Assembly: GCA_016208235.1 (NCBI GenBank)
Contig: JACQYN010000118.1
Span: 11,891-75,890, forward strand
Reading direction: 5' to 3'
DNA: 64,000 bases
Source: Deltaproteobacteria bacterium
GTDB lineage: Bacteria > Desulfobacterota > Desulfobaccia > Desulfobaccales > 0-14-0-80-60-11
The notes under the pieces: generated by a model
The model's database searches: none
Told to the model about the DNA's origin: nothing
What the model saw: the letters and a program-made list of their open reading frames with translations, nothing else
In this document: in pieces, positions 2,921 through 61,787 of the stretch
Position numbering within the stretch: position 1 is the first letter of the stretch
How the letters are laid out: each line of letters starts with the position of its first letter
Program-made: the position numbers and the translations under genes

Positions 2921-5131
2921 ATGCCCAAAGAAACCACGGAAGTCACCCTCACCCTGGAAGGCATGCACTGCGCTTCCTGTGTGGCCCGGGTGGAAAGGGC
3001 CCTGAGCGGGGTGCCCGGGGTGGAGCAGGCCCTGGTCAACCTGGCCACCCGCCAGGCTAAGGTCAGGTACGACGCACAGCAGACCGCGGTGGAAAACTTG
3101 CAGGCCGTGGTCCATGATGCTGGCTATGAGGTTACCGGCTGGGCTCTGGAAGCCCCTCCACCCGTTTCTCCGGAGATCGAGGCCCAAAACCTTAAGCGCC
3201 GTTTTCTCCTGGCCCTGATCTTGAGCCTCCCCGTCTTTCTGGGGGCCATGGTGCCGCCTCTGCCGGGGTGGTTGGGCCTGAAGCCGGAGCCCCTGGCTTA
3301 TCTGCTCCTGATCTTCACCACCCCGGTGTTGTTCTATTCCGGCGCGCCTTTTTTCCGGGGCGCGCTGAGCGCAGCCCGCCACGCCGCGGCTAATATGGAT
3401 ACCCTGGTGGCCCTGGGGACCAGCGCCGCATACTTTTATTCCGCGTGGGTGACTTTTTGGCCCCAATCAGTGGTTGCTCCCGGCAAAAGCCCGGACCTCT
3501 ACTTCGACACCACGGCCATGATTATCACCTTCATCCTCCTGGGCCGCTGGCTGGAGGCCCGCACCCGGGGCCGGGCCTCCCAGGCCATCCGCCGCCTCTT
3601 CGCCCTGGCCCCGCCCAACGCCCGCATCCGCCGGGAAGGCCTGGAATTGGAGGTGCCCCTGGAGCAGGTGCTGGTGGGGGACTTGATGACCGTGCGCCCC
3701 GGAGAGAAGATCCCGGTGGACGGGGTGGTGGTGGAGGGCGCGTCCAGCGTGGACGAATCCATGCTCACCGGGGAGAGCGTGCCGGTGGCCAAGGAACCGG
3801 GCGCCGAAGTCTGGGGGGCCACCCTCAACCAGCGAGGGTTTCTGGTCTTTAAGGCCACCCGGGTGGGCCGGGACATGGTGCTCTCGCAGATCATCCGCCT
3901 GGTGGAAGAGGCCCAGACCAGTAAGGCCCCCATTGAACGCCTGGTGGACCGGGTGGCGGGGATTTTCGTCCCTGTGGTCATGGGCCTGGCCGGCCTCACC
4001 TTCCTGGGTTGGCTGGTCTGGGGCCCGGCCCCGGCTCTCACCCCGGCCCTGGTCAGCATGGTGGCGGTCCTTATCATCGCCTGCCCCTGCGCCATGGGCC
4101 TGGCCACCCCCACCGCGGTGATGGTGGGCTCCGGCCGGGGCGCGGAAATGGGCATCCTGCTGCGGGGCGGCGAACCCCTGGAGCGGGCCTACCGCCTCAC
4201 CGCGGTGGTCTTCGACAAGACCGGCACCCTCACTCAAGGCCGCCCCCAGGTCACGGACATCCTGGCCTGGGAAGGCTGGCCTGAAGACCAGGTCCTGGCC
4301 TGGGCCGCGGCCGTGGAAGAAAAATCGGAACATCCCCTGGCGGAGGCTGTAACCCACGCCGCGGCCCACCGGCAACTACCGCTGCCGCTGGTGGCGGAGT
4401 TTCAGGCCATTCCGGGGCTGGGAGTCAAGGCTAGAATTGAAGGGCAGGAAGTACTCCTGGGCAATCTCACCTTCCTTAATCGGGAAAATATTCTGGTTCA
4501 GGCCCTCACCCCCCACCAGGAGCGCTTGGCCCAGGAAGGCAAAACCACCATCTTCCTGGTGGCCGGGGGTAAACCGGTGGGGCTGCTGGCCGCCGCGGAT
4601 ACCCTGAAACCGGGAGCCAAGGCGGCTGTGGCCGCGATCCAGGCCATGAATCTGAAAGTTGTCCTCCTCAGCGGCGACAACCGCCTGGCCGTGGAGGCTG
4701 CAGCCCGCACCGTGGGCATCTCCGAAGTGCTGGCGGAAGTCCTTCCCGGGGACAAGGCCCGCAAGGTCGCAGAATTGCAAGCTGCCGGGGAGACCGTGGC
4801 CATGGTGGGAGACGGCATTAACGACGCCCCGGCCCTGGCCCAGGCCGATGTGGGCATAGCCCTGGGCACCGGCGCGGACGTGGCCGCGGAAGCCGCGGAC
4901 CTGACCCTCATCCGGGACGACCTGACCCTCATCCCTCAGGCCATTCACCTCTCCCGGAAAATGATGCGCATCATCCGCCAGAACCTCTTTTGGGCCTTCT
5001 GTTACAACGTGGTGGCCATCCCCGCGGCTTCCCTGGGGCTGCTCAACCCGGCCATCGCCGCCGCGGCCATGGCGATGAGTTCGGTGAGCGTGGTTACAAA
5101 TTCCCTGCGCCTCCGGCGTTTTCGAGGGTAG
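2921..5131 (+). CDS. copA: copper-translocating P1B-type ATPase
   Basis: N-terminal HMA motif [11 protein letters not shown] motif ([13 protein letters not shown]), DKTGTLT phosphorylation site, GDGINDAP hinge. 736 aa. Confidence 0.95.
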
Positions 5132-6750: not shown

Positions 6751-7128
6751 ATGCGCATATTTCCTGTGATAATACTGGCCGTCCTCCTCTTGGCCGGTTG
6801 TTCCGTGGGCATGGCCCTGTACGGCCATTCCGAGCCGGATTTGCGAAACATCCAGGTGGGCAAGGATCGTAAAGAGGTGGAATCCTACCTGGGAAAGCCG
6901 GTGAAGACGAAAACCGAGGATTGGCGAACCATCGCCGTTTATAAATACCAGGTGGGCAATGAACCCGCGCCGGCCCGGGCGGGGATGCACGCCATCCTGG
7001 ACGTGGGCACCTTGGGCCTCTGGGAATTCATCGGCACCCCCATTGAACTGATCAAGGGGAGCACCCGACGGCTCACTGTTATCTATGGACCGGACAATAA
7101 GGTCGTGGAGATTAAGAAAGGCGGCTGA
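6751..7128 (+). CDS. small lipoprotein, unknown function
   Basis: Lipobox LLLAGC after a hydrophobic leader. 125 aa. No family recognised. Confidence 0.6.
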   Translation: MRIFPVIILAVLLLAGCSVGMALYGHSEPDLRNIQVGKDRKEVESYLGKPVKTKTEDWRTIAVYKYQVGNEPAPARAGMHAILDVGTLGLWEFIGTPIELIKGSTRRLTVIYGPDNKVVEIKKGG

Positions 7129-7137
7129 CTGTAAAAT

Positions 7138-7361
7138 ACGGTTTTCATTTTTTGGTTTTCAGTTTTCAATTAAAAAAAGTTGGACTATCCATGGTTATGG
7201 GCGGAGTCATCACTCTGCTTATCTGCTTTCCCCAACCCACCCATATAAGTCAGCCGGGGAATTCGGGGCTGCAGCGCCGACTTCTCCGGCTGCTAATCAA
7301 TTCAACATCTGATATCTCGATATTATTTAACCGAAAACCGAAAACCGAAAACTGAAAACTG
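7138..7361. repeat. ~225-bp element bounded by inverted (CGAAAAC)n arrays (MITE-like)
   Basis: Left arm acggttttcattttttggttttcagttttc (7138-7172). Right arm aaccgaaaaccgaaaaccgaaaactgaaaactg (7329-7361). Fills the spacer between two convergent genes. Confidence 0.85.
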
Positions 7362-7363
7362 TA

Positions 7364-8827
7364 TCATTCCCCCTCCACCAACAGCTTATAGAGGTTCAGG
7401 TAGGCGGACGCGGACCTTTCCCAGGAGAAGTCCTGGGACATGGCGTTTTCCACGAGACGGCGCCATTGCTTCTGATTCTTGTAAGCCTTCAGGGCCGCGT
7501 TGATGGCCGCCGCGAAGGCTTCCGGGGTGTAGTCGGTGAACAGGAAGCCGGTGCCCGAGCCTACGGCCGGGTCGGCCTGGGCCACGGTGTCGGCCAGGCC
7601 GCCGGTGGCCCGGACAATGGGAATGGTGCCGTATTTTAGGGAATACATCTGGTTGAGGCCGCAGGGCTCAAACCGGGAGGGCATGAGGAACATGTCCGCG
7701 CCGGCTTCCATGAGGTGAGCCAGGGCGTTGTCGAACGCGATCTTCACTCCCAGTTTGCCGGGGTATTTGGGGGCTTCCTGGGCCAGCCAGCGGTGGTATT
7801 TTTCCTCCCCGGTGCCCAGGATGACCACCATCAGGTCCTGGTCCAGGAGTTCCGGGAGCATCGCGGCCACCAGGTCGAAGCCTTTCTGGTCCGCCAGACG
7901 GGAGATCATGGCCAGGATGGGGGCCTTGGACAGCTTGGGGTCCAGATTGAAGGCCTCCATCAGCGCGGCCTTGTTCTTGGCCTTGCCCGCGAGGTTGCCC
8001 TTGCTGAAGGTGGCGGGGATGAGGCGATCGTTTTCCGGGCTCCAATCCTGATAATCCACCCCGTTCAAAATGCCGTGCAGGGCAGAGGCCCGGGCCCGCA
8101 GCAAGCCTTCCAGGCCGTAGCCGAACTCCGGGGTCTGAATCTCTTCGCTGTAGCCGACGCTGACGGTGGTGATGGCGTCGGCAAAGACGATCCCCCCTTT
8201 GAGCAGGCTGATCTGGTCGTAATATTCCAGGCCGTCAATACCGAACAGGGACCAGTCCAGGCCCAGAAGAGGAAATTTCTCTTTATAAAAAAGCCCCTGG
8301 TAGGCCAGATTATGAATGGTGAGCACGGTCTTGGCCCCGTTCAGAATTTCCGCCCCCTGCCATCGGTGGCGCAGGTAAACCGGAACCAAGGAAGACTGCC
8401 AGTCGTGGCAATGGATCACATCCGGCTGAAAGCCCAGGTTCTGGCAAACCGGCAGGATGGTGGAGCAGAAAAAAGAAAAGCGCTCCAGGTTGTCGAAATA
8501 ATCGCCTTTGGGCGTGCCGTAAAGCTGAGAGCGTTCAAAGAACTCATCCCGCTCCACGAAATAAAAGGGGTAATCGCCGGACTCGGGGGTCTTCACATCA
8601 AAGGCCAGCCCGGTTCCCCCCAAATGCCCTTCCAGGTTTTCCGCCACCGTGGTCATGGGAATCTTGCCCTGCTTGACCATGCCGTAATAAGGCATGAGGA
8701 CCCGGACGTCTGAGCCCAGGTCCTTCAGGGCGTTAGGCAGGGTGCCCACCACGTCGGCCAACCCCCCGGTCTTGGCAAAAGGCACCGCTTCCGAGGCAAC
8801 AAACAACACCCGCAAATTCCGCGCCAT
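7364..8827 (-). CDS. glgA: glycogen synthase
   Basis: 487 aa. N-terminal VLFVASEAVPFAKTGGLADVVGTLP motif and overall GT5 glycogen synthase pattern. AAGGAGG Shine-Dalgarno upstream. Confidence 0.95.
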   Translation of the reverse strand: MARNLRVLFVASEAVPFAKTGGLADVVGTLPNALKDLGSDVRVLMPYYGMVKQGKIPMTTVAENLEGHLGGTGLAFDVKTPESGDYPFYFVERDEFFERSQLYGTPKGDYFDNLERFSFFCSTILPVCQNLGFQPDVIHCHDWQSSLVPVYLRHRWQGAEILNGAKTVLTIHNLAYQGLFYKEKFPLLGLDWSLFGIDGLEYYDQISLLKGGIVFADAITTVSVGYSEEIQTPEFGYGLEGLLRARASALHGILNGVDYQDWSPENDRLIPATFSKGNLAGKAKNKAALMEAFNLDPKLSKAPILAMISRLADQKGFDLVAAMLPELLDQDLMVVILGTGEEKYHRWLAQEAPKYPGKLGVKIAFDNALAHLMEAGADMFLMPSRFEPCGLNQMYSLKYGTIPIVRATGGLADTVAQADPAVGSGTGFLFTDYTPEAFAAAINAALKAYKNQKQWRRLVENAMSQDFSWERSASAYLNLYKLLVEGE

Positions 8828-8842
8828 AGCCCCTCCTTAGGA

Positions 8843-8900
8843 CGGTTTTCAGTTTTCGGTTTTCGGTTTTCGGTTATAAATATATCGAATAATCGTATGG
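8843..8900. repeat. (GTTTTCG)n array plus ATCGA-box flank in the glgA leader
   Basis: acggttttcagttttcggttttcggttttcggtt ataaatatatcgaataatcg. Inverted relative to 7329-7361. Confidence 0.9.
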
Positions 8901-8964: not shown

Positions 8965-8996
8965 CCCTGGCCCCTGACCCCTGACCCCTGGCCCCT
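8965..8996. repeat. 7-nt tandem array (CCCTGGC/CCCTGAC)
   Basis: Same family as 4-38. Overlaps the stop codon (8995-8997) of the NYN gene. A complementary-orientation copy lies at 57751-57771. Confidence 0.9.
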
Positions 8997-9810
8997 AATA
9001 CTTGTACACCAGGTCGATGTCTGCGGCGACGAAGCCCTTTTCCCCTTCGGTGAGGGTAAATTCAAAGATATAGTCCCGGCTGGGCAGGTTTTCCGGGTTG
9101 ACCCCCGAGGGCAGGTCCTTTTCCATGAAAAACACGGAGGTATAGGGGGATTCTTCCAGACGGGTGTCGGTCACCCATGCCTTGCCGAAGCTGTGCATGA
9201 AGCGGAAGAATCCGTAGGAACGGTCCAGGAAATACTTGGTGCACACGCCCCGGACCCGGCTGCCCGACTCCCCCCAGGGGGGAGCCCCGGCAAAGGGGGG
9301 CGTGGTGGGCAAAAGACCAGGAATAAGATAACCGGGGATGAACAGGTCCACTTCCCGGCGCAGCCGCGCGGAGACGTTGGCGAAGGCCACCAGTTCCACG
9401 CGGCAGCCCTTGTTCTGGACCATGGTCACCACACTGCAAAAATCCCCATCCCCCGTAAACAGATAGATCAGGTCCAGGCGGTCCGACTGGGAGATGATGT
9501 CCAGGCCCATCTCCATGTCCAGGTTGGCCTTGCCGTAGGTGCGGCCCGAATCATCCGTGTACCACCTGATGGGCTTTTCTATTACCTTGAAGCCCAGGTC
9601 CCGGAGGGTGAGAATGAAGTTCAGGGTATTTTTGTAGTTGGGGTCGGAGCTGGCCCGCTCTTCGTCGATGGCCACATACGCGTTGAGGCGCATCACTTCA
9701 TCGCCGTCCCAGGCGGCCAGGCGGCGGATGACTTCGTAGCGCATGCCGTAGCCGCCGCAGCGCATGATGTTCATGGAATCCACATATATTCCCACTTTGC
9801 GATTATTCAC
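8995..9810 (-). CDS. NYN (LabA-like) domain protein with C-terminal cold-shock/OB-like domain
   Basis: N-terminal VGIYVDSMN..., FTGDGDF and VELVAF motifs of NYN/LabA RNase-like domains. C-terminal GVCTKYFLDRSYGFFRF resembles a CSD. Confidence 0.75.
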   Translation of the reverse strand: MNNRKVGIYVDSMNIMRCGGYGMRYEVIRRLAAWDGDEVMRLNAYVAIDEERASSDPNYKNTLNFILTLRDLGFKVIEKPIRWYTDDSGRTYGKANLDMEMGLDIISQSDRLDLIYLFTGDGDFCSVVTMVQNKGCRVELVAFANVSARLRREVDLFIPGYLIPGLLPTTPPFAGAPPWGESGSRVRGVCTKYFLDRSYGFFRFMHSFGKAWVTDTRLEESPYTSVFFMEKDLPSGVNPENLPSRDYIFEFTLTEGEKGFVAADIDLVYKY

Positions 9811-12050: not shown

Positions 12051-12063
12051 AAATGAATATTTT

Positions 12064-12140
12064 TCTCACGCAAAGACGCAAAGGCGCTAAAGATTTAATA
12101 TAATTATTGCGTCTTTGGGCCTTTGCGTCTTTGCGTGAGA
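12064..12140. repeat. hairpin with 8-nt periodic arms (CGCAAAGA)n
   Basis: tctcacgcaaagacgcaaaggcgc ... gcgtctttgggcctttgcgtctttgcgtgaga, between the S-component stop and the ATPase ORF. Confidence 0.9.
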
Positions 12141-12159
12141 ATTCAACGGAGAACCTACA

Positions 12160-13806: not shown

Positions 13807-13882
13807 GGGGTAGAAACCCCTTGGGCGTGCCGTGCACGCCGATTAATGGCGGCCACGGGCCGCCCTATGGCTGCTTGGAAAA

Positions 13883-14044
13883 GTTCCAAGTTCCCAGTTC
13901 CGTGTTCCAAGTTGAGACTTCTGCGAAAGTCTTTTAAGGTGTCATTCTGAACGGAGCGAAGCTTCGTTTCGAATCTCGTATTTGAGATTCTTCGGTCGCT
14001 TCGCTCCCTCAGAATGACAATTGATGAAGTTTCGCAGAAGTCTC
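13883..14044. repeat. composite nested palindrome, copy I-a
   Basis: GTTCCAA-type 7-mer array (13883-13913), GAGACTTCTGCGAAAG (13914-29) paired with TTTCGCAGAAGTCTC (14030-44), and the core GTCATTCTGA...TCAGAATGAC palindrome (13941-14018). Confidence 0.9.
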
Positions 14045-14282
14045 AAGTTAGGAATTAGCCATCAGGAACTTTTAATAATTTGCGGTAGGCCAACGGCCCA
14101 TGAATAATTGATCTGAAAAGTTGTACCCCGCACAGGCTGGAAAGCCTGTGCTACCGATACTTTTTATGGTTTATGGGTGAGCCTAAGGTCCATGAGGACC
14201 TGCCTTGATTTTTGATTTTTAAGCTGATGGCTGAAAGCTATTCGCCTTCTTTTTCATGGACCTTGACCGAACGGAGGCATCT

Positions 14283-15089
14283 ATGTGGGTAGCCGCAATT
14301 CAACTCAATTCCACCCCGGATATGGAGGGGAACCTGACTCGCGCCCGGTCCTTGATCGAGGAGGCCGCGTCCCGGGGCGCGCAGCTTATCGCCCTGCCGG
14401 AGCATTTTGCGTATCTGGGGCCGGAAGACAAAAAGCCGCCGTCCGCCCAGGCACTGGATGGGCCTCTGCTGAGTGAATTTCGGGAACTGGCCAGAAAATT
14501 GGGGGTCTTCCTGCTCCTCGGCTCCTTCCCGGAGCTTACCGCGGCCGGGGCCCGCCCCTTTAACACCAGCGTGCTCCTGGGACCCCAGGGAGACATTCTC
14601 GCGTCCTACCGCAAGATGCACCTCTTCGACGTGGATCTCGCCAAAGGGCCAAGATACCGGGAATCTCAATTTATTCAGGCCGGAGAAGAATTGGCCGTGG
14701 CCCCCCTTCCCGGCGCCCCCTTCACCGCGGGTCTGGCCATCTGCTACGACCTGCGCTTCCCGGAGCTTTTTCGGGCCCTGACGGCCCAAGGCGCGGATCT
14801 TCTGCTGTTGCCCGCGGCCTTCACCCTGGCCACCGGCCGGGACCACTGGGAGGTCCTGGTCCGGGCCCGAGCCATCGAAAACCTGGCTTACGTCATCGCC
14901 CCGGCCCAATGGGGCCAGCACTCCCCGGGCCGCCGCAGCTACGGCCGCTCCCTCATCATCGACCCCTGGGGCCTCATCCTGGCCCAGGCCCCGGACGGAG
15001 AAGGCATCATTTACGCCCGCCTGGACCACGATCGTTTGAACAGGCTGCGCCGGGAACTGCCTTGTTTGCACCATCGCCGATTGAAGTAA
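14283..15089 (+). CDS. carbon-nitrogen hydrolase (nitrilase/Nit family)
   Basis: Start at ATG 14283, after GGAGG at 14272-14276. Typical Nit pattern IALPE (catalytic Glu), YRKMHLFD (Lys), LAICYDLRFPE (Cys). Confidence 0.85.
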   Translation: MWVAAIQLNSTPDMEGNLTRARSLIEEAASRGAQLIALPEHFAYLGPEDKKPPSAQALDGPLLSEFRELARKLGVFLLLGSFPELTAAGARPFNTSVLLGPQGDILASYRKMHLFDVDLAKGPRYRESQFIQAGEELAVAPLPGAPFTAGLAICYDLRFPELFRALTAQGADLLLLPAAFTLATGRDHWEVLVRARAIENLAYVIAPAQWGQHSPGRRSYGRSLIIDPWGLILAQAPDGEGIIYARLDHDRLNRLRRELPCLHHRRLK

Positions 15090-15102
15090 GAGGTGGGTGG
15101 AA

Positions 15103-15373
15103 AGCTGTCAGCTATCAGCTATCAGCTGTCAGCTGTCAGCTTAATTGAAGAACTATTAGAGATTGGAGCTAAATCGAGTTCAGCTGAAGTTTTGGGGTCT
15201 GCCTTAATTTTTGATTTTATACCAAGTCGCAAACAAAAAACGCAGTATCGTAGGGGCGCACCCGTGTGTGCGCCCGAGTCCGGGGCGGACACATGGGTCC
15301 GCCCCTACAAGAAAATTGTCTTTTGTTTGCGACTTGGTATTAAAGCTGATGGCTGAAAGCTGATAGCTGAAAG
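15103..15373. repeat. composite nested palindrome, type II
   Basis: Outer (CAGCTRT)n arms at 15103-15141 / 15344-15373, enclosing the element at 15219-15340. Confidence 0.9.
15219..15340. mobile_element. 122-bp MITE-like palindromic insertion (ATACCAAG...CTTGGTAT)
   Basis: 20-bp perfect terminal inverted repeats (ataccaagtcgcaaacaaaa / ttttgtttgcgacttggtat) around a GTAGGGGCG...CGCCCCTAC double hairpin. An uninterrupted version of the flanks exists at 14201-14240. Confidence 0.65.
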
Positions 15374-20502: not shown

Positions 20503-20575
20503 TCTCACGCAAAGACGCAAAGACACAAAGAAAATAAATGCTTTGCGCCTTTGCGCCTTGGCGTCTTTGCGTGAG
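20503..20575. repeat. hairpin with 8-nt periodic arms (CGCAAAGA)n, second copy
   Basis: tctcacgcaaagacgcaaagacacaaag ... ctttgcgcctttgcgccttggcgtctttgcgtgag. Abuts the aconitase stop (20576-78) and lies 19 nt before the ALDH start. Confidence 0.9.
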
Positions 20576-22538: not shown

Positions 22539-22725
22539 AGTGGTCAGTGGCCAGTGGTCAGTTAGAGAGCTCTGAAAAAGTCTTGTCTGTCATCCTGAGC
22601 GAAGCGAAAGATCTCGTATTTGAGAGATTCTTCGGTCGCTCCGCTCCCTCAGAATGACATAAAAGACCAATTTTACAGAGGTCTCAGTCTTTTTTCTGGC
22701 CACTGGCCACTGACCACTGACCACT
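22539..22725. repeat. composite nested palindrome, copy I-b
   Basis: (CAGTGGY)n arms at 22539-22562 / 22696-22725, degenerate GAGAGCTCTGAAAAAG layer, and core GTCATCCTGA...TCAGAATGAC (22589-22658). The right arm overlaps the 3' end of CDS 22684..25395. Confidence 0.9.
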
Positions 22726-25395
22726 ACCTTTCAGCCTCAAAACCTCCTCCCGCAGACCCAGGGTGACGGCGTTAATCTCCGACGCGCCCGGGTCCACCTG
22801 CAGTCCCCGCGCTTTCAGCTCCTCCCAGGAATGCTCCCGGCCGAAAACTACCTGGATAGGATGGGAGCGGGGCAGGGTCGCGCCGGCAGGCCAGGCTTCG
22901 TAGGAGCCTTGAATATAGACCGGCACCAATTTCACCCCCAGTTCTTTGGCCAGGATGGCCGCGCCCTTCTTGAACCGGCCCACCTCTCCGGAAGGGCTCC
23001 GGGCGCCTTCGGGAAAGACGCAGAGCAACTGGCCGTTTCTGAGAATATAAGACGCCACCTGCATGGCCGCCACCACGTTCCGGGACGAGTCCACCGGGAT
23101 GACCCGGATGAGCTTGCTAAGATTCCGGACTACGGGAATATCGAAATACCGGCTGTATCCCATGGAAAAGAGGCGGTCCCGCAACGGCCCCGGCACCGCA
23201 TAAGCAATGAGAAACCCATCCAGGAAACTGGCGTGGTTGGGGCAGATCACATATCCTTGCTTCTGTAGCCTCTCTCCGCCATAGACCTGGAGGTTGAACA
23301 TCCATTTAAACCAACGGCCCAATACTGTCGATAGCCCCTGGGTGGCCATCCGGGCCGCGAGCCCCCCTTCGATGCCCAGGCGCTGGAGTAAGTCCGGCGG
23401 CGGATCAGTCCGGAGAATGGTGTCCCAGGCCGCGATTTCTTCTTCAGGCTCCTTGGCGGCTTCCGGTTTTTTCTCTTCGATAAAGTTGATGAGCTCTCTG
23501 ACCGTGAAGATCCCGGTAAATTCTTCATCCCTGATCTTGAGCTGGAACCGGCTTTCCAGGGCCGCGAGCAGTTGCACCAGGCCCAGGGAGTCCATACCTA
23601 AGTCCAGCTCCAGATGGTCGTCCAGGGAGATGCGGGAGTCTCCAATTTGCCGGGCCAAAACTTCCACCACCATCTCGCCCACGGGAGACAGCCCTTCTTC
23701 TATGGCCGGCTTTTTCTTTTCGTAACGTTGGCCGGCCCGCTCCTGGTAAAGCCGCTGGGCCTCGTGGATCTTGACTTTTCCCAAGCGGGTCTTGGGGAGT
23801 TCTTCGTTTATCAGGATAAAATCCCGCACTCGCTTGTAAGGCTCCAGGCCCTGGGACAACAGTTCCAGATCCCACTTCACCTTCCCGTAAATGTCCGTTT
23901 CTCCGATTTTCCGGAAAAAGTCCAGGTCCGGCACCACCACCGCGGCCAGTTTCTCGGCCTTGGCGTCCGCGGTCACGAAGATTTCTTTGATGGAAGGAGC
24001 CTTCAGGTAGTAATGCCCCACTTCCTCGGCGGAGACGTTCTTGCCCGAACTGAGGACGATGATCTCCTTGATCCGTCCCTGGATGAACAGATAGCCTTCC
24101 CGGTCGAGATACCCCAGATCGCCGCTGTGAAACCAGCCGTCTTTCAGGACCTCCCGGGTGGCGGCCTCATTGCGGTAATACCCGGCCATGACATTGTCAC
24201 CCCGGATGAGGACCTCGCCCACCCCGTCCGCAGCGGGGTTGAGAATCCTGACTTCCACCCCCTCCAGGGGCCGGCCCGCGGACCCCAGGCGGGGAGCCTC
24301 CGGCGAGTTCATGGTGACCACCGGCGCGGTCTCCGTTAAGCCGTAGCCTTCCAGGACCGTGAATCCCAGGCGCGCAAAACCCTCTGCCAAGACTTCCGGC
24401 AGCTTGGCCCCACCGCTGACAAAAAACCGGAACTGCTCCCCCAGGGCGCTGTGGAATCGCCGCAGCAGCGGCTGCGCGGGATTTACCCCCAAAAACCGCG
24501 AAATCTTCCAGGAAATATTGAGAAACCCCAGCAACAGGGGCCGCACCGGCCAGGGGATTTTGTCTATCTGCCTCTGGATGCCGTTATAAAAAAGCTGGAG
24601 CACCTGGGGGGTGACCGCCATGATGGTCACCTGCTGCTCCTTGATGCACCTCAGGATGGCGTCGGGCTTCAAGGTGTCCAGATAAGTGATCTGCAGTTGC
24701 AAGAAAAGCGGCGTGAGAAGGGTGGCGGTAAAAGAAAAAGAATGGGACAAGGGCAGGATGGAGAGAAAGTTGTCCCCCGGCCGGGTGGCGTTGAGCCGGG
24801 TAATGCCCAGGTAATTGGCGCAGAAATTTTTATGGGTGAGCATCACCCCTTTGGGAACCCCGGTGGTGCCGGAGGTATAAATGATGGAAGCCAGGTCGTG
24901 GGGATGGGCCTCAGGCAGAGGTCTGCGACTTGCCTTCGTCTCCAGCAACACCGGGAAACCTACGGTTTTCTCCCCGGCTTTCCCCCCCTCGCCGACGACC
25001 ACGATCTTTTCCAGGAAAGACGCCTCCCGCAATTGGGAGAGAGGGGCCTTGGGAAAGGTGAAGATGATCCGGGCCTGGGTCTCCTGCAGAACATGGTCCA
25101 GGAAGTCCCAGCGGGAGACCGGGTCCAGGGGCACGGCCACCGCGCCCGCCAAGAGCAGCCCGAAGTAGCAGATGCTCCATTCAGGGCGGTTTTCCAGGAG
25201 GATGACTCCCCGGTCGCCTTTTTTCACCCCCTGGGCCCGGAGCCAACGGGCCACGGCCAGGCTGTCCCGGTAAAGCCGGCCGTAGGTGTACTCATGCACC
25301 ATTTCCCCTTCCCGGAAGAGAATGGCCGTTTGGTCGGCAGCTTCTGAGGCCACCCGGGCTAGTTGACCCGTCAAAGTTTCCGCTGCGTCTTCCAT
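22684..25395 (-). CDS. tri-domain fusion: acyl-AMP/CoA ligase, acyl carrier domain, PlsC-type acyltransferase
   Basis: Start trimmed to ATG 25395 (MEDAAETL). AMP-binding YTSGTTGVPKG. PP-binding LDLGMDSLGLVQL. Acyltransferase HX4D motif PNHASFLDG plus FPEGARS. Confidence 0.85.
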   Translation of the reverse strand: MEDAAETLTGQLARVASEAADQTAILFREGEMVHEYTYGRLYRDSLAVARWLRAQGVKKGDRGVILLENRPEWSICYFGLLLAGAVAVPLDPVSRWDFLDHVLQETQARIIFTFPKAPLSQLREASFLEKIVVVGEGGKAGEKTVGFPVLLETKASRRPLPEAHPHDLASIIYTSGTTGVPKGVMLTHKNFCANYLGITRLNATRPGDNFLSILPLSHSFSFTATLLTPLFLQLQITYLDTLKPDAILRCIKEQQVTIMAVTPQVLQLFYNGIQRQIDKIPWPVRPLLLGFLNISWKISRFLGVNPAQPLLRRFHSALGEQFRFFVSGGAKLPEVLAEGFARLGFTVLEGYGLTETAPVVTMNSPEAPRLGSAGRPLEGVEVRILNPAADGVGEVLIRGDNVMAGYYRNEAATREVLKDGWFHSGDLGYLDREGYLFIQGRIKEIIVLSSGKNVSAEEVGHYYLKAPSIKEIFVTADAKAEKLAAVVVPDLDFFRKIGETDIYGKVKWDLELLSQGLEPYKRVRDFILINEELPKTRLGKVKIHEAQRLYQERAGQRYEKKKPAIEEGLSPVGEMVVEVLARQIGDSRISLDDHLELDLGMDSLGLVQLLAALESRFQLKIRDEEFTGIFTVRELINFIEEKKPEAAKEPEEEIAAWDTILRTDPPPDLLQRLGIEGGLAARMATQGLSTVLGRWFKWMFNLQVYGGERLQKQGYVICPNHASFLDGFLIAYAVPGPLRDRLFSMGYSRYFDIPVVRNLSKLIRVIPVDSSRNVVAAMQVASYILRNGQLLCVFPEGARSPSGEVGRFKKGAAILAKELGVKLVPVYIQGSYEAWPAGATLPRSHPIQVVFGREHSWEELKARGLQVDPGASEINAVTLGLREEVLRLKGSGQWSVASGQKKD

Positions 25396-25481
25396 AATTC
25401 CTTGGTGGCACAGGCTTCCAGCCTGTGCATGTAGGTTTTGCACCGTTACACCTATAAGGCGGGCGATGCCCGCCCTACCTA

Positions 25482-26454: not shown

Positions 26455-26568
26455 TTCCCCCTCCCTTGAGGGGAGGGGGTTAGGGGGAGGGTGGTGGCGA
26501 CTATGGGCAACAAGGGTTCAAAGACGCCACCCCCTCCCTAACCCTCCCCCCTCAAGGGGGAGGGAAAA
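26455..26568. repeat. 114-bp GC-rich palindrome (CCCCTCCC-TTGA-GGGGAGGG ... GGTGGCG / CGCCACC ...)
   Basis: Arms at 26455-26500 and 26523-26568. The right arm differs from the DUF559-cassette terminal repeat at 1 of 40 positions by hand alignment. Confidence 0.9.
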
Positions 26569-27315: not shown

Positions 27316-27524
27316 TGGATCTCCGGTGGTTGGGGGAGGAGGCTAAAAAGTTGTCAGTGGTCAGTGGTGCCGTCCACGTTTTTTCGTTTATAACTGGCAA
27401 CTGACTACTGTTTTACCCCCTCTCCACGCTTCCCATCTTTAATACTTACGATCCCTTGTGGAACCGATATGATATTGTTCATATATTAGAAGAAACATGG
27501 GAAACTGGCAAGGAGGAGGGTAAG

Positions 27525-41872: not shown

Positions 41873-43028
41873 GTCCGGGTCCCGGTCTTACGACCACCTC
41901 ATCCTGATCAGCGCCCTCACCCTCCTGGGCCTGGGCCTGACCATGGTCTTCAATGCCAGCACGGTGATGGCCCAGGCCCAATATCAAGACCCTTATTATT
42001 TCATCAAGCGCCAGGCCCTGTATGCCTTGCTGGGTATCGGAGTCCTTTTTCTGGGCCGCACCGTTGATTACCATCGCTACCAGCGCTTGGCTTATCCTTT
42101 TCTATTCCTTTCCTTAATCTGCCTGGTCCTGGTCTTTATCCCCGGTATCGGCGGCAAAGTGCGGGGCGCGGCCCGCTGGCTCAAGCTGGGCCCCTTTACC
42201 TTGCAGCCTTCGGAGTTCGCCAAACTGGCGGTGGCCCTCTTCCTGGCCTATTCTTTGACGAAAAAGCAGGAAAAGATGAAGTTCTTTTCCATCGGCTTCC
42301 TCCCCCATATGATGGTGGCCGGTGTCTTCATCATCCTGGTGGGCCTGGAGCCGGACTTCGGCACGGCCATCACCATCGCGGCCATCGTCTTTACCATGCT
42401 CTTCATAGGCGGCACCCGACTCACCCATATCATGCTGGCCCTGGGGAGCGGCGTGGGCCTGGCCGTTATCATGGTGCTTAGGGACCCCAAGAAGATGGGG
42501 CGCGTCTTTTCTTATCTCGATCCCTGGAAGTACGGCCAGGACGTGGGCTACCAACTCAAGCAGTCGCTGCTGGCCATCGGCTCCGGGGGCCTGTGGGGAA
42601 TGGGGCCTGGTCAGAGCCGGGCCAAACTCTTCTACCTGCCGGATGCGCACACCGATTTCATCATCTCCATCTTTAGCGAGGAGACGGGCTTTCTGGGGGT
42701 GATGCTGGTCCTTATCCTCTTTGGCGTTCTGGTGTACCGCGGCTTTCTCCTCAGCTTCCGGGCCCCGGACAGCTTCGGTTCTTACCTGGCCCTGGGCCTC
42801 ACCCTCTTGATCGGTTTGCCCGCGGTCATCAACCTGGGAGTGGTGAGCGGCATCTTCCCCACCAAGGGCTTGTCTCTGCCCTTTCTCAGCTACGGCGGGT
42901 CCTCCCTGCTGGCCAACCTGCTGGCCGTGGGCATCCTGCTGAACATCAGCAGCCGCATCAAACGCCCGGGCCTGACGATGCGGAGGGGGGAGGAGAAGCA
43001 AGGGAATGTGGGGGGAGGGTCAGGGTAA
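41856..43028 (+). CDS. ftsW: SEDS peptidoglycan polymerase FtsW
   Basis: Start trimmed to ATG 41856 (MSPNPES), overlapping the murD end by 17 nt. SEDS motifs QPSEFAK, LEPDFGT, LPDAHTDF and LSYGGSS. Confidence 0.9.
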   Translation: MSPNPESGSRSYDHLILISALTLLGLGLTMVFNASTVMAQAQYQDPYYFIKRQALYALLGIGVLFLGRTVDYHRYQRLAYPFLFLSLICLVLVFIPGIGGKVRGAARWLKLGPFTLQPSEFAKLAVALFLAYSLTKKQEKMKFFSIGFLPHMMVAGVFIILVGLEPDFGTAITIAAIVFTMLFIGGTRLTHIMLALGSGVGLAVIMVLRDPKKMGRVFSYLDPWKYGQDVGYQLKQSLLAIGSGGLWGMGPGQSRAKLFYLPDAHTDFIISIFSEETGFLGVMLVLILFGVLVYRGFLLSFRAPDSFGSYLALGLTLLIGLPAVINLGVVSGIFPTKGLSLPFLSYGGSSLLANLLAVGILLNISSRIKRPGLTMRRGEEKQGNVGGGSG

Positions 43029-43029
43029 A

Positions 43030-43153
43030 CCAGTGGTCAGTGGCCAGTGATCAGTTTTTAGTTTTCGGTTTTGGGTTTTGGGTTTTGGGTTTTATCTTAC
43101 AAGGATTAAATGCCTATACTTACCTAATCACTGGCCACTGACCACTGACCACT
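43030..43153. repeat. (CAGTGGY)n inverted arms enclosing a (GTTTTSG)n array, ftsW-murG spacer
   Basis: ccagtggtcagtggccagtgatcagt (43030-55), tttttagttttcggttttgggttttgggttttgggtttt (43056-94), tcactggccactgaccactgaccact (43129-53). Confidence 0.9.
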
Positions 43154-50622: not shown

Positions 50623-50648
50623 ACGGTTTTCAGTTTTCGGTTTTCGGT
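50623..50648. repeat. (GTTTTCG)n array abutting the ftsZ stop
   Basis: gattaaaat-acggttttcagttttcggttttcggt. The ftsZ TAA lies inside the conserved TTAAAATAC flank. Confidence 0.9.
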
Positions 50649-50649
50649 G

Positions 50650-50682
50650 GGGGCGTGATTTTGTCACGCCCCTTGCTTTTTT
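50650..50682 (+). terminator. rho-independent terminator after ftsZ
   Basis: GGGGCGTGA-TTTTG-TCACGCCCC stem-loop followed by TTGCTTTTTT. Confidence 0.75.
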
Positions 50683-50720: not shown

Positions 50721-50830
50721 ATACCAAGAAATTGTAGGGGCGGACCCGCGTGTCCGCCCTTGGGTGGGCGCACACACATGGGTGCGCCCCTACAACAGAT
50801 AATTCTAGTTTTTTGACGGCAACTTGGTAT
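50721..50830. mobile_element. second copy of the ATACCAAG...CTTGGTAT element, flanked by a 19-bp direct repeat
   Basis: Core tgtaggggcggacccgcgtgtccgccc..gggcgcacacacatgggtgcgcccctaca. Flanks tacaatatcaaactattgc (50700-18) and tacaatatcaaactactgc (50831-49). Confidence 0.6.
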
Positions 50831-52795: not shown

Positions 52796-53176
52796 GTGGG
52801 GGAGGGGGCTAAGGGCCGGTAGCACAGGCGTCTCGCCTGTGGACCTTAGCCCCCTTCCCCTATACCCGCCACAGGCGCTAACTTAAACAATATTTGTCAT
52901 TCTGAACGGAGCGAAGCGGAGTGAAGAATCTCTAATTTTCCTACGAAATGAGAGATTCTTCGCTGCGCTCAGAATGACAAAAAGCCTTATGTTAACGCTT
53001 ATGCCCACACCCCCTCCCCCAATCCCATAAGCTTTGGTGGCACAGGCTTCCAGCCTGTGCGGTCAACTCGCTGGGTCTCCTATCTCATGCTGATTTACCT
53101 GCAAACGACATGTTCTGTAGGGGCGAACCTTGTGTTCGCCCACGATTCCCCAGGCGAACACAAGGTTCGCCCCTAC
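52796..53176. repeat. cluster of at least four different palindrome families in one spacer
   Basis: 52796-52858 (GGGGAGGGGGCTAAGG..CACAGGCG..), 52896-52978 (GTCATTCTGA core), 53038-53060 (CACAGGC hairpin), 53118-53176 (GTAGGGGCGAAC...GTTCGCCCCTAC). Confidence 0.9.
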
Positions 53177-55970: not shown

Positions 55971-56160
55971 CAGGCACTCTCCTTTGGGATGAAATTTATC
56001 TTAATCGAAATAATATCGGACGTTATCCAATTTTCCATTAAGGGTCAATTAAAAGGCCTGATTAAATTGATGTTCGAAACATCCAATAATTGCTGATAAA
56101 ATTGATGGAAGGATAAAATGTAAGCGGACACTGCCCGCCAGAATCTCTTTTTTTTTTCAC

Positions 56161-56192
56161 GGAAAACGGAAAACAGAAAACGGGTATTTAAA
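56161..56192. repeat. (GGAAAAC)n array plus GGGTATTTAAA flank forming the leader of the pterin-binding gene
   Basis: ggaaaacggaaaacagaaaacgggtatttaaa followed directly by ATG 56193. Compare with the copA leader. Confidence 0.85.
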
Positions 56193-56954
56193 ATGCTCCT
56201 GGCCGCGGATAATTTGCAGATCTTTAACCCGGTGGTGGCCGCGGCTTTGGAAAAACAAGACCCCCGGCCGCTCCAGGATTTGGCCCGGCGCTGCCGGGAG
56301 GCCGGGGCCGCCATGTTGGACATTAATCCCGGCTTTCTCAGCAAGCGCCACCAGGAGCGCATGGCCTTCATGGTGGAAGCGGTGCAGGAGACGGTGGACC
56401 TGCCCTTGATCCTGGACAGCCCTGACGCCGCGGTCCTGGCTAAGGGCCTGGCCGCCTGTCGCAGTAAACCCACTCTCAACGCCCTGACCCTGGAACCCAA
56501 AAAACTCGAAGAGATCCTCCCCGTGGCCGCGGCCCAGCAGACCGACCTGGTGCTGCTGCTCCTGGATGAACGCTCTTTTCCGGCCCCCACCCTGGAAGGC
56601 AAAATCGCTCTAGCCGTGGAGCTGCGGGAGCGGGCCCTGGCCGCGGGCCTGGCTGCGGAGCAGTTGATTTTCGACCCGGTGCTCCCCAACCTCAGTTGGC
56701 CCGACGCCTGGGAGCAGGTGCGGGAGTGTATCAAAACCGTGCGTCTGCTGGCCGCAGGCGCCATCTTTCCCGAACCCGCGCGCACCATGGCGGGGCTGTC
56801 CAATCTGCGCAGCCACCTGCGCCGGGTTTATCCCCTGGAGGTGGAGGTAACCTGCCTGGGTATGCTGGCGGGCGCGGGCCTTAACATCTTCCTGGCGGAC
56901 GTGCTGCAGCCGGGGTTCAGGGAAGGGATCAAACTTATTCGGGAATTAAGTTGA
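56193..56954 (+). CDS. pterin-binding (DHPS/MeTr-like) domain protein
   Basis: 253 aa TIM-barrel-like pattern (AGAAMLDINPG, LILDSPD, TLNALT) resembling methyltetrahydrofolate:corrinoid methyltransferase / dihydropteroate synthase-like proteins. Confidence 0.65.
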   Translation: MLLAADNLQIFNPVVAAALEKQDPRPLQDLARRCREAGAAMLDINPGFLSKRHQERMAFMVEAVQETVDLPLILDSPDAAVLAKGLAACRSKPTLNALTLEPKKLEEILPVAAAQQTDLVLLLLDERSFPAPTLEGKIALAVELRERALAAGLAAEQLIFDPVLPNLSWPDAWEQVRECIKTVRLLAAGAIFPEPARTMAGLSNLRSHLRRVYPLEVEVTCLGMLAGAGLNIFLADVLQPGFREGIKLIRELS

Positions 56955-57650: not shown

Positions 57651-57674
57651 GTTTTTGGTTTTTGGTTTTTCGTT
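57651..57674. repeat. (GTTTTTG)n array in the leader of the isochorismatase-family pseudogene
   Basis: gtttttggtttttggtttttcgtt, 20 nt upstream (minus strand) of the start at 57631. Confidence 0.8.
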
Positions 57675-57810
57675 AAATAAATAAGATTGTCAAAAGAAAT
57701 GAGAAGTACCGGGGCGGAACCCGTAGGCCTATTATAAGCACGGCCAAGGACAGGGGCCAGGGGTCGGGGTCCCTTTTATCCGGCTGGTGGCGGTAGGGGT
57801 ATGATCTAAA

Positions 57811-60173: not shown

Positions 60174-61412
60174 ATGATTTCTCCAAACCTTCAGGATAAC
60201 TGCACGCCGGCCCTAGACGGGGAAAATTTTTTCTTTGAGATGGGCCCCATCCGCCCCCCCAGCGAAGGCAGCGACCATTCCCTGCTGATCCGCACCACCA
60301 GGAACTGCAGTTGGAACCGGTGTGAGTTTTGCGGCACCTACCGGGGGGAAAAATTCAGTTACCGGCCGGTGGCGGAGATTAAGAAAGATATCGAGGTGGC
60401 CCGGACTCTGTATGAGGAATTGCAAGCCGTTGCCGCCCGGGGTGGGGTCCGGGAGATCAGTTCCCAGGCAGTGCGCTCTCTCTGGGCCGGCAACCCCCGG
60501 CGTTATGGGGAAAGTGCCGGGAATCTGACCCTTAAATGGCAAAATCTCCACAACGTCGCTAACTGGCTCCATGCCGGGGCCAAAACCGTGTTTCTCCAGG
60601 ACGCGGACGCCTTAATCATGCGCACCCCGGATTTACTGGAGGTTATCACCTATCTGCGCGCGGCCTTCCCCACGGTGGCGCGGGTCACCGCGTATGCCCG
60701 CTCCCAGAGTTGTTACCGCAAGTCATTGGAAGAATTAAGTGAATTACGCCAGGCGGGCCTGCTGCGGTTGCACGTGGGTCTGGAATCCGGCTGCGACGCG
60801 GTGCTCAAACGGATGAAAAAAGGAGTCTCCGCCCGGAAACAAGTGGAAGGCGGCCAAAAGGTGGTGGCCGCGGGCATCTCGCTGTGCGAATACCTCATGC
60901 CCGGCCTGGGGGGCAAGGATTTTTCCGAGAGGCATGCCCTGGACAGCGCCGCGGTGTTGACCGCCATCAACCCGGCTTTCATCCGCCTGCGCAGTTTGGC
61001 CCTGCGCCGCCATTCCCCCCTGTTGGCCCAAAGCAAGGAGGGACTCTTCACCGAACTCTCCGAAGACGGCGTAGTGGCGGAGATTGCCTTGCTGATCGCC
61101 AACTTGCATTGCCACTCGTATCTGGTCTCCGACCAGATGTCCAACCTGCTGTATGGCGTAGAAGGGCAACTGCCCCAGGATAAAGAGAAAATATTGCAGG
61201 TGATCGACGATTATTTACAAAAACCGGAGTCGGAGAGATTGGCTTTCCGGCTGCGGCAGCGCCGGCGGTCTTTCCTGGCGGTTTACGGCTCTCTTCCCGA
61301 ACCCCTGGAAGAAAAGGCCGAATTAGCCTGGGACGCCCTCCGCCGGGAATCCCCCGAAGCCCGGGAACGGGTGGACGCCGCTATTGCTGCGCTCAAGGAG
61401 GGTTTTGTTTGA
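60174..61412 (+). CDS. radical SAM-like protein with CX4CX2C cluster motif
   Basis: 412 aa. GPIRPPSEG..SLLIRTTRNCSWNRCEFCGTY, read directly from codons tgc agt tgg aac cgg tgt gag ttt tgc at ~60306-60332. TIM-barrel-like remainder. The start (60174 or 60240) is uncertain. Confidence 0.75.
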   Translation: MISPNLQDNCTPALDGENFFFEMGPIRPPSEGSDHSLLIRTTRNCSWNRCEFCGTYRGEKFSYRPVAEIKKDIEVARTLYEELQAVAARGGVREISSQAVRSLWAGNPRRYGESAGNLTLKWQNLHNVANWLHAGAKTVFLQDADALIMRTPDLLEVITYLRAAFPTVARVTAYARSQSCYRKSLEELSELRQAGLLRLHVGLESGCDAVLKRMKKGVSARKQVEGGQKVVAAGISLCEYLMPGLGGKDFSERHALDSAAVLTAINPAFIRLRSLALRRHSPLLAQSKEGLFTELSEDGVVAEIALLIANLHCHSYLVSDQMSNLLYGVEGQLPQDKEKILQVIDDYLQKPESERLAFRLRQRRRSFLAVYGSLPEPLEEKAELAWDALRRESPEARERVDAAIAALKEGFV

Positions 61413-61448: not shown

Positions 61449-61787
61449 AAGCTGTCAGCTATCATCTGTCAGCTTAAAAGAATATGGAGTTTGATTGTAA
61501 ATTGAGACCTCTGCGAAAGCCTACTCAGCTGTCATTCTGAGGGAGCGGAGCGACCGAAGAATCTCGTTTTTGGCAGTACAGCTTTTCCAGATGGTGCCGA
61601 TGATTCCACCCAGATTGGAAATCCTGGGCGCTAAAATACGAGATTCTTCACTCCGCTTCGCTCCGTTCAGAATGACATTTTAAAGACTTTCGCAGAGGTC
61701 TCAAATTGAGATAAACCAGGATTCCGATCTTAATTTCAAATCTTGCTTTAAAAAAAGCTGAAAGCTGACTGCTGAAAGCTGTAAGCT
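61449..61787. repeat. composite nested palindrome, copy I-c (largest)
   Basis: (CAGCTRT)n arms 61449-61475 / 61755-61787. GAGACCTCTGCGAAAG 61504-19 pairs with CTTTCGCAGAGGTCTC 61687-702. The core GTCATTCTGA...CAGAATGAC at 61531-61676 has an enlarged loop. Confidence 0.9.

Follow-up and report, generated by a model that had tools for sequence, protein, structure and literature searches.

Polar Heptanucleotide Repeat Arrays at Gene Borders in Uncultured Desulfobaccales

Introduction

The spacer between ftsW and murG in the dcw cell-division cluster of an uncultured Desulfobaccales bacterium related to sulfate reducers (ftsW stop at 43028, murG ATG at 43201) contains two arrays of tandemly repeated 7-nt units, at 43031–43094 and 43129–43153, and similar arrays with other units recur throughout the surrounding 64,000 nt of sequence (GenBank assembly GCA_016208235.1, contig JACQYN010000118.1, positions 11,891–75,890; hereafter the window, in whose coordinates all positions are given). 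The locus raises the question of what kind of repeat these arrays are, how units that differ in sequence come to share a period of seven, and what, if anything, keeps them at the borders of genes. We conclude that they are, very probably, heptanucleotide simple-sequence repeats (SSRs) of the short tandemly repeated repetitive (STRR) or long-SSR type, with slippage dynamics, in uncultured Desulfobaccales (Thermodesulfobacteriota). The whole explanation that we prefer, which joins this identity and slippage to a role at the level of the transcript, we regard as probable, with appreciable doubt.

Period counts were made on the window and 148 de-duplicated sequences, all run through Tandem Repeats Finder (TRF), with non-overlapping period-7 arrays counted at ≥2.8 copies and ≥80% matches. 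A uniform period scan applied an identical relative threshold to every period, a strict array being one of at least three copies, and 30 second-order Markov shuffles of the window served as the control. Gene borders beside arrays in the window were set from open reading frames (ORFs) and Pfam domains; the coding share of the window is ~78–82%. The genomes and loci of relatives are labelled L003, L021, L090, and so forth. The nearest MurG relatives belong to uncultured Desulfobaccales/Thermodesulfobacteriota metagenome-assembled genomes (MAGs), at 82–84% identity for species representatives and up to 89% for metagenome contigs, and exact window proteins were matched only in three short Logan contigs from one study (SRR12113402, SRR12113406), all identical to the window and the sole contigs found for its species. 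An assembly artefact was ruled out, given that the arrays are shorter than reads, are the same in independent assemblies, and were found in MAGs from many studies.

Prevalence of the 7-nt Period

With the uniform scan, the window displayed eight strict arrays of period 7 and none of periods 4–6 or 8–12, and none was found in any of the 30 shuffles. TRF returned 22 period-7 rows for the window, which, once overlaps were removed, left 16 period-7 arrays and five of period 8 (two octamer palindromes); no other period had more than one. The initial annotation of the window, made from the sequence alone, had proposed a 7-nt excess, and this is confirmed against the shuffled controls; arrays were also present at each coordinate it had named (exact or within 1–3 nt).

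The arrays are not confined to the window, as period 7 dominates in relatives too, lineage-wide. Their density per 100 kb was 25.0 in the window, 11.4 in relatives with MurG identity ≥81%, 4.8 at 65–73% identity, 1.0 at 54–58%, and 1.9 at ≤45%, and it declines with phylogenetic distance from the window.

Slippage and Drift of the Repeat Units

Several unit types coexist in the window, namely CAGTGGY, CAGGGGY, CRGTTTT, CAGCTRT, NAGTTCC, and GTTTTTG. These families had been described as unrelated in sequence, which is not so, as they grade into each other in phase inside single arrays and share CAG or CAGT cores. Of 44 arrays, 22 have CAG/CTG in their consensus unit, against a null of 20%, and 16 have CAGT/ACTG, against a null of 5%. 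The gradation is seen at the focal spacer itself, where the left array (43031–43094, + strand), starting 2 nt past the ftsW stop, parses as one phased array of nine heptads: CAGTGGT, CAGTGGC, CAGTGAT, CAGTTTT, TAGTTTT, CGGTTTT, and GGGTTTT three times. What had been taken for one family enclosed by another at 43030–43153 is, on this parsing, an inner GTTTTGG array that continues the left arm in register and has no partner at the right.

Comparable series occur in relatives. In L087 the in-phase units run TAGTAAT, CAGTGAT, CAGTTGT, CAGTTTT, TAGTTTT (three times), TAGTTGC, and GGGTTGG; in L089 they run CAGTGAT, CAGGGGC, CGGTTCT, TGGTTCT, TGGTTTT, and GGGTTCT, ending, after further units, in GGGTTGC. 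L110 displays GAAACTC three times followed by ACTGACC and ACTGACA, and L021 likewise shows an in-phase transition. Since single arrays switch unit in phase (the window, L021, L087, L089, L110), we consider the families to be mutational derivatives spread by slippage.

The same gradation is seen between species. The orthologous left array past the ftsW stop is built of CAGTGGY in the window, L004, L008, and L088, of CAGGGGY in L003 (13.7 copies) and L006, of CAGTRAT in L005 and L083, of AAGTAAT in L007, and of CNGTTTT in the more distant L025, and the orthologous arrays in 15 relatives are separated by one- or two-base steps. The initial annotation had set aside descent from one ancestor, and this is not supported, given that orthologous arrays at the same border differ in unit and single arrays switch unit in phase. 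The unit sequence drifts and is re-homogenised.

Two genomes, L021 and L090, are 97.7% identical over 9.5 kb, and the only two indels of ≥2 nt between them are both 7 nt long and both within heptamer arrays of the ftsW-murG spacer, one in a TAGTTTT sub-array and the other in an ACTGCTC array, while the loop and flanks between the arrays are identical. In addition, two neighbouring units are altered in parallel (TAGTGGT, CAGTGGT versus AAGTGAT, GAGTGAT). Together, the indels and the parallel unit changes are direct evidence that arrays change length by whole units and that their units evolve in concert. The Basic Local Alignment Search Tool (BLAST) alignments of more divergent pairs (L086/L087, L087/L089, L003/L006, L005/L089) break at the spacers.

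Replication slippage would, in our reading, both generate the units and homogenise them. Published work reported an excess of heptamers among bacterial SSRs, located in intergenic regions, and hypothesised that slippage by 7 nt is favoured by how much DNA the polymerase holds (Mrazek 2007, as summarised in PMC4679880 and PMC4692102); the fixed 7-nt step of the window agrees with the hypothesis as it is summarised there. A common generating mechanism with a fixed step had been suggested for the window, and the L021/L090 indels do show a step of seven, although the step is not absolute, as an 8-nt family behaves alike. This family (ACGCAAAG / CTTTGCGT, ending GCGTGAG) forms inverted pairs at gene borders (12063–12141, 20503–20575), as the heptamers do, and in relatives (L005, L007, L086, L087, L089, L025, L028) it occurs as a single arm ~15 nt before the gene after ftsZ.

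Conserved Positions in the Cell-Division Cluster

The focal left array is accompanied by a right array, (CACTGRC)3.6 at 43129–43153 (− strand), which lies 47 nt before the murG ATG and pairs with 43031–43055. A left CAG-type and a right ACTG-type array were present in all 15 of the 15 relatives with MurG identity ≥81% whose sequence spans the ftsW-murG spacer, and several relatives at 65–73% identity carry CNGTTTT/AAAACCG or GAAACTY versions there. In some distant relatives the single open frame that could encode the MurG N-terminus runs through an (AAAACCG)4 array (L134 783–822; L116 9920–9975), which would translate to (S/P)TENRK(P/Q)KTENR ahead of the IAGGGTGGH glycine loop.

A second conserved site is the end of ftsZ. 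In the window, (CRGTTTT)3.6 at 50624–50648 (+ strand) starts 4 nt past the ftsZ stop and is directly followed by an intrinsic terminator (50649–50673 and T-run). The same layout, comprising the stop, 3–7 nt, (NNGTTTT)3–7, and a conserved intrinsic terminator (GGGGCGTGA...TCACGCCCC and T-run), recurs at no fewer than 15 loci, the most distant with 68% MurG identity. Before the gene downstream of ftsZ, some species have a heptamer array, some an octamer array, and some none, so arrays are also gained, lost, and replaced. Across the order, arrays are retained between ftsW and murG and at the junction of the ftsZ stop with its terminator, even as their units turn over.

We also noted other elements in these spacers and in the cluster. 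Long G/C-run palindromes (TTCCCCCTCCCTTGAGGGGAGGGGG...) occur at 26455–26566 and 52798–52860 of the window, and similar GGGGGAGGG/CCCTCCCCC elements occupy the ftsW-murG spacer of relatives without heptamer arrays (L009, L010, L097). Between murG and murC, the segment 44430–45374 comprises a DUF559 gene (Vsr-like endonuclease fold) and an orphan 157-aa ORF; with a G+C content of 0.52, against ~0.60, it resembles an insertion into the dcw cluster.

Polarity at Gene Borders

All arrays in the window are intergenic except two that reach the final codons of a gene, and they usually lie 0–15 nt past stops or ~8–50 nt before starts (2 nt at ftsW, 4 nt at ftsZ, 2 nt at glgA). On the strand leading 5′ to 3′ away from the adjacent gene, CAG outnumbers CTG in 16 of the 17 informative arrays (binomial p = 0.0003) and T outnumbers A in 14 of 18, and this polarity holds equally beside eight starts and ten stops. 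The array at 56159–56183 is the sole one to break the polarity by CAG/CTG count and still keeps the T-rich rule, and the arrays at 57651 and 57751 also conform, given a probable isochorismatase-like start near 57628. In relatives, T exceeds A on the sense strand past stops in 26 of 31 arrays, counts that include orthologous, non-independent sites and heuristic gene calls, and the CAG rule is weaker, owing to units such as CTGTTTT and GGGTTCT.

The polarity is fixed, in that the G/T-rich, CAG-bearing strand points away from the gene beside it; in the sense reading, G/U-rich arrays lie past stops and A/C-rich arrays before starts. The G/U-rich arrays match RN|WUU, the preference of RNase E. Single arrays (4–38, 2881, 8843, 8965, 50624) and the non-complementary pair 8843/8965 keep the same polarity, for which reason polarity looks primary and the hairpin secondary. 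A core Shine-Dalgarno sequence was present at none of the six starts with an array ≤17 nt upstream, versus ~60% of called genes, a rough estimate in which the choice of starts favoured Shine-Dalgarno sequences.

Further explanations of the arrays were tried and rejected. Provision of stops in all three frames (TGA, TAA, and TAG in CAGTGAT, CAGTAAT, and TAGTTTT) was ruled out by the CGGTTTT and CAGGGGY units, which hold no stop. Integron attC sites, dif/Xer sites, and transcription-coupled skew were dropped given the dcw operon context, the absence of the core motifs, and a sense strand that is A/C-rich before starts.

Inverted Pairs and Predicted Folding

Because of the polarity, when both borders of a spacer carry an array, its top strand shows (CAG-type)...(CTG-type) and the spacer hence contains an inverted pair, and this reading is the same for co-directional, convergent, and divergent gene neighbours. 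The window contains six heptamer and two octamer pairs. The initial annotation had described the arrays as mostly inverted pairs with 25–35-bp stems; the pairs do exist, but only about half of the heptamer arrays have an inverted partner in the same spacer, and arm pairing spans 13–29 bp. All eight pairs fold arm-to-arm in minimum free energy (MFE) predictions, with 13–29 arm pairs and z-scores of −3.3 to −16.7 that are partly due to nested palindromes. In the predicted fold of the focal spacer, 43129–43153 pairs with 43031–43055 over 19 of 25 arm positions (MFE −53.4 kcal/mol, z = −6.2), and the 170-nt spacer folds are also strong in L005, L007, L083, L084, and L088. The Rfam scan of the entire 64 kb gave no matches at the gathering score.

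The hairpin was considered as the conserved property, including through quasi-palindrome correction that would keep the arms matched, and this was dropped after a cross-species test of the arms, in which the left arm paired with the right arm of other species nearly as well as with its own (−26.1 vs −27.5 kcal/mol; permutation p = 0.15; 15 species). This result is one of several that weigh against the explanation that we prefer. The 170-nt spacer folds were not significant in L003, L006, L008, L086, L087, and L089, and sense versus antisense folding of 16 orthologous spacers revealed no z-score asymmetry and so gives no evidence for structure specific to the sense RNA. Pairs in co-directional, convergent, and divergent spacers alike fit an origin at the DNA level as well as they fit an RNA role. 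The polarity counts from relatives carry the dependence noted above, and the octamer family shows that period 7 is preferred and not obligatory.

We also observed that glgA (7364–8876 region) and the CN-hydrolase gene (14205–15141) are each flanked by mutually complementary arrays of the same family, before the start and past the stop, such that a monocistronic transcript of either could pair its own 5′ and 3′ ends.

Selection, By-Product, or Protein Reader

The observations above bear on whether the arrays are maintained for a function. They could instead be a neutral by-product, that is, slippage-born heptamer microsatellites without function, tolerated only in spacers up to the coding boundary, with a polarity that merely reflects the base composition tolerated in 5′ and 3′ untranslated regions. 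The 7-nt indels and fast turnover of units agree with this, as do arrays that extend up to, and at times into, coding ends, the gain, loss, or octamer replacement of arrays before the same gene among species, and arm complementarity that is not specifically conserved; the literature, moreover, establishes no function for any heptamer family. However, arrays of three to five units persist at two borders in species with MurG 68–85% identical, while the surrounding spacer has diverged, the polarity is strict, single arrays included, and array-adjacent starts lack Shine-Dalgarno sequences. We consider the neutral account rather unlikely, though well worth keeping in mind.

The explanation that we prefer is that array presence and polarity at the borders (the ftsW-murG spacer and the ftsZ stop/terminator junction) may be kept by selection on the transcript. 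Their most likely role would be that of untranslated-region and intercistronic elements, a tentative guess that we would ourselves doubt sooner than defend. Candidate roles of this kind include an intercistronic hairpin for stability or processing, a leader that is unstructured, A/C-rich, and in place of a Shine-Dalgarno sequence, and, from the stop codon to the terminator, a G/U-rich spacer or a platform for single-strand proteins. Roles of these kinds have been proposed for cyanobacterial STRR hairpins (PMC2670836) and for the TAACTGA repeats of Beggiatoaceae (PMC4679880).

The initial annotation had also raised a structural reader. A cold-shock-domain protein, or another protein that covers 7 nt of single strand, might set the period, with the array controlling hairpin or terminator formation or translation initiation. 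The period is conserved and the sequence is not, the arrays adjoin terminator and intercistronic hairpins, and the G/T-rich units past stops (GGTTTTC, AGTTTTT, GGTTCTG) resemble the T-rich heptamers bound by CspB (PMC4679880). Nevertheless, a single specific reader is hard to square with units that range from G-rich (CAGGGGY) to A/T-rich, and the octamer family shows the same behaviour. No csp gene was seen among the window ORFs scanned, and 7-nt slippage alone accounts for the period. Such a reader therefore seems to us quite improbable.

Mobile-Element Traits and Nested Palindromes

The inverted pairs could also be dispersed elements resembling MITEs (miniature inverted-repeat transposable elements) or repetitive extragenic palindromic (REP) sequences, with heptad terminal inverted repeats, spread by transposition or recombination, the single arrays being half-elements. 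Terminal inverted repeats do exist (the six heptamer and two octamer pairs), the orientation of the arms is fixed relative to the spacer centre, and a variant order CGG-CAG-CGG-CGG recurs at non-orthologous loci. A module GATWAT-N11-TTTTAACSG-(AAAACNG)3–4-GTATTA is found beside different neighbours in the window, L086, L031, and L003, as might be expected of a dispersed element; apart from it, copies have unrelated interiors and are alike for only ~15–30 nt outside the arrays. No direct repeats indicative of target-site duplications flank the window pairs, no precise filled/empty boundaries were found on comparing array presence and absence before the same gene across species, and no transposase or REP-associated tyrosine transposase (RAYT) gene was present among the window ORFs scanned. 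Some pairs have non-complementary arms (8843/8965 in the window; L003, L006), the arrays lack the GTAG or CGTC head of REP elements, and orthologous persistence and 7-nt indels need no mobility. The lack of target-site duplications and of a transposase makes a MITE-like origin possible but weak, and we hold it to be improbable.

The loops of the pairs contain other palindromic elements, a point that a mobile-element account would also accommodate. A nested MITE-like element (outer inverted repeat GAGACYTCTGCGAAAG, inner palindrome GTCATTCTGAGCGAAGCGAAGAATCTC) occurs at 13909–14049, 22563–22695, and 61499–61707 (also 52893–52981), and as the first three copies each lie within an array pair of a different unit type, the pair loops look like insertion hot spots. 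An inverted-repeat family ATACCAAGTCGCAAAC... at 15215–15344 encloses a GTAG palindrome and is itself nested in the 15103/15342 heptamer pair; the ATACCAAGTCGCAAAC element is 84% identical over 126 nt to L014 103–228, from a genome with 69% MurG identity. GTAG-headed, G+C-rich palindromes at 53117–53176, 50732–50795, and 15249–15310 (e.g., GTAGGGGCGAACCTTGTGTTCGCC / GGCGAACACAAGGTTCGCCCCTAC, with 24-nt perfect arms) resemble REP sequences or REP doublets forming hairpins (REPINs), are separate from the arrays, and are present in many related loci.

Arrays in the Remainder of the Window

At the left end of the window, (CAGGGGY)n at 4–38 (− strand) adjoins the stop of a radical-SAM gene (39–1406, −), and (CNGTTTT)4 at 2881–2912 (− strand), with the sense reading (AAAACYG)4, lies 8 nt before the ATG of a P-type ATPase gene (2921–5131, +) with no Shine-Dalgarno sequence between. 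The region of glgA (7364–8827, −) has four arrays. A degenerate (CRGTTTT)n at 7138–7172 (+ strand), 9 nt past the stop of an ORF at 6751–7128 (+), is the left arm to (CRGTTTT)4.7 at 7329–7361 (− strand), the right arm, which lies 2 nt past the glgA stop. On the other side, 15 nt before the glgA start and with a Shine-Dalgarno sequence between, lies (CRGTTTT)4.7 at 8843–8876 (+ strand), or (AAAACYG)n in the sense of glgA; (CAGGGGY)4.6 at 8965–8996 (− strand) overlaps the stop of an NYN-domain gene (8995–9810, −), keeps the polarity, and is not complementary to 8843–8876. The (CAGGGGY)n arrays at 4–38, 8965–8996, and L003 9823–9918 fit the canonical G-quadruplex motif on their G-rich strand, and past stop codons this is the sense strand; the array in L003 is the one of 13.7 copies.

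The two octamer pairs lie past the queT stop (12063–12141, built of ACGCAAAG units, of whose 30 possible arm pairs the predicted fold forms 29) and between the aconitase stop and the aldehyde dehydrogenase start (20503–20575), neither being assigned to a strand. Around the CN-hydrolase gene, (NAGTTCC)4.7 at 13881–13913 (+ strand), 74 nt past the stop of an ABC ATPase gene, flanks the nested MITE-like palindrome. It is followed by (TTGATTT)2 and then (AGCTGAN)2.7 at 14205–14239 (− strand), 16 nt before the CN-hydrolase start (14256) and complementary, across the gene, to (CAGCTRT)5.6 at 15103–15141 (+ strand), 13 nt past its stop. The latter is also the left arm to (AGCTGAN)4.6, so read on the + strand, at 15342–15373 (− strand), the right arm of a pair whose loop contains nested palindromic elements. 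The segment 14205–14220 (TTGATTTTTGATTTTT) comprises two copies of TTTTGAT, a heptad also of the Vibrio cholerae ctxAB promoter; with two copies only, this is probably coincidence.

On the far side of the aconitase gene, which is transcribed from the − strand, (CAGTGGY)3.4 at 22539–22562 (+ strand) lies 37 nt before the start and is the left arm to (CAGTGGY)4.3 at 22696–22725 (− strand), which codes for the final residues (SGQWSVASGQ) of an ORF at 22684–25443 (−), ending ...SGQWSVASGQKKD*. A short pair occupies a divergent spacer, with (CAGTGGT)2.9 at 27349–27369 (+ strand) as the left arm, 33 nt before the start of a GDPD gene on the − strand, and ACTGGCA, ACTGACT, and ACTG at 27393–27410 (− strand) as the right arm, upstream of an EamA gene (+). 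Towards the right end, (CYGTTTT)3.6 at 56159–56183 (− strand; sense (ACGGAAA)n) lies 9 nt before an ATG at 56193 with no Shine-Dalgarno sequence. The upstream region of the isochorismatase-like gene (− strand) contains both (GTTTTTG)3.4 at 57651–57674 (+ strand), ~22 nt before the probable start (~57628), and the units CAGGGGC, CAGGGGT, and CGGGGTC at 57751–57771 (+ strand). The last pair comprises a (CAGCTRT)-type array at 61449–61475 (+ strand), 36 nt past the stop of a radical-SAM gene (60174–61412, +), and (AAAGCTG)4.9, so read on the + strand, at 61754–61787 (− strand), with a nested MITE-like palindrome in the loop.

Comparison with Known Repeat Systems

Heptanucleotide arrays have been known since 1990 in cyanobacteria, and later in Xanthomonas, Burkholderia, Beggiatoaceae, and Geobacter. 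The STRR units of Mazel et al. (1990) are said to be CCCCAGT and CAACAGT, with a CAGT core as here. Like STRR, the present arrays are short tandem 7-bp arrays, intergenic, with several unit families per genome and inverted arrays that form hairpins between cistrons; they differ in belonging to another phylum, in having other units, and in sitting in a high-GC genome. We document border polarity, transitions of unit in phase, and positions that persist order-wide, and know of no report of such polarity, transitions, or persistence for STRR. In cyanobacteria, STRR, "usually made up of 7 bp repeats", form hairpins, as seen in the hupS-hupL interval of four cyanobacteria, and a role in transcript stability or translational coupling was proposed for them (PMC2670836).

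The TAACTGA repeats of marine Beggiatoaceae, cyanobacteria, and Bacteroidetes are found in forward orientation just before starts, often in place of a Shine-Dalgarno sequence (MacGregor 2015, PMC4679880), and the suggested reader is CspB, which would bind T-rich heptamers at one protein per heptamer (PMC4679880). Those repeats, in two to six copies a few nt before starts and with ACTG on the sense strand, resemble the arrays described here, which include ACTG- or A/C-rich sense-strand arrays 8–50 nt before starts, and the unit form ACTGATA is one base off the ACTGATY units of L005, L007, and L083. That system, however, has essentially one unit and almost no inverted copies, whereas we observed many interconverting units, arrays also past stops, and inverted pairs. 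No TAACTGA array was found in the window by TRF, the nearest units being ACTGATC and ACTGATT in relatives.

An intergenic heptamer excess was also described for GGGAATC in Xanthomonas and GGGGAYT in Nostoc (Rehm 2015, PMC4692102), and Xanthomonas species share repeat-bearing spacers that vary in length and sequence, with some inverted pairs (PMC4692102). The heptamer-specific intergenic excess, the shared spacers, the occasional inverted pairs, and the G-rich, G-quadruplex-capable units (cf. CAGGGGY) are common to those arrays and ours; the lineage and units differ, most units here do not form G-quadruplexes, and polarity and in-phase transitions are shown here.

Nearer in lineage (former Deltaproteobacteria), Geobacter metallireducens has sites of five tandem heptanucleotides with the consensus MTYCTGA, drawn as strand-switching pairs, and 49 copies of four-copy GGGACCG elements (PMC2700814). 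The former share a CTGA core with our ACTGAYY units. The Geobacter elements were read as binding sites of global regulators, some lie within genes, and they came with no comparative or polarity analysis. Finally, REP sequences, bacterial interspersed mosaic elements (BIMEs), and REPINs are, like the arrays, extragenic, mostly past stops or between cistrons, and hairpin-forming, with proposed roles in mRNA stabilisation or termination, but they are not tandem heptads, each being a unique imperfect palindrome headed by GTAG or CGTC and moved by a RAYT. The literature search for such arrays in Desulfobaccales found nothing.

Significance

The finding extends a known class of repeat into a further lineage and describes no new kind of element. 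As a long shot, the arrays may be a genome-wide polar 'punctuation' of gene borders, conserved across Desulfobaccales, with G/U-rich heptads past stops and A/C-rich heptads before starts; a protein that covers 7 nt, perhaps a cold-shock-domain chaperone, would read the heptads as single strands. If so, this reader would tune the formation of terminator and intercistronic hairpins as well as Shine-Dalgarno-independent initiation, and the punctuation would be the same system as cyanobacterial STRR and the TAACTGA repeats of Beggiatoaceae. The Desulfobaccales clade is an independent lineage with many sequenced relatives, in which slippage, in-phase unit conversion, and border polarity with order-wide positions can be read directly from the sequence, and these regularities yield concrete, testable predictions on the function of the arrays.

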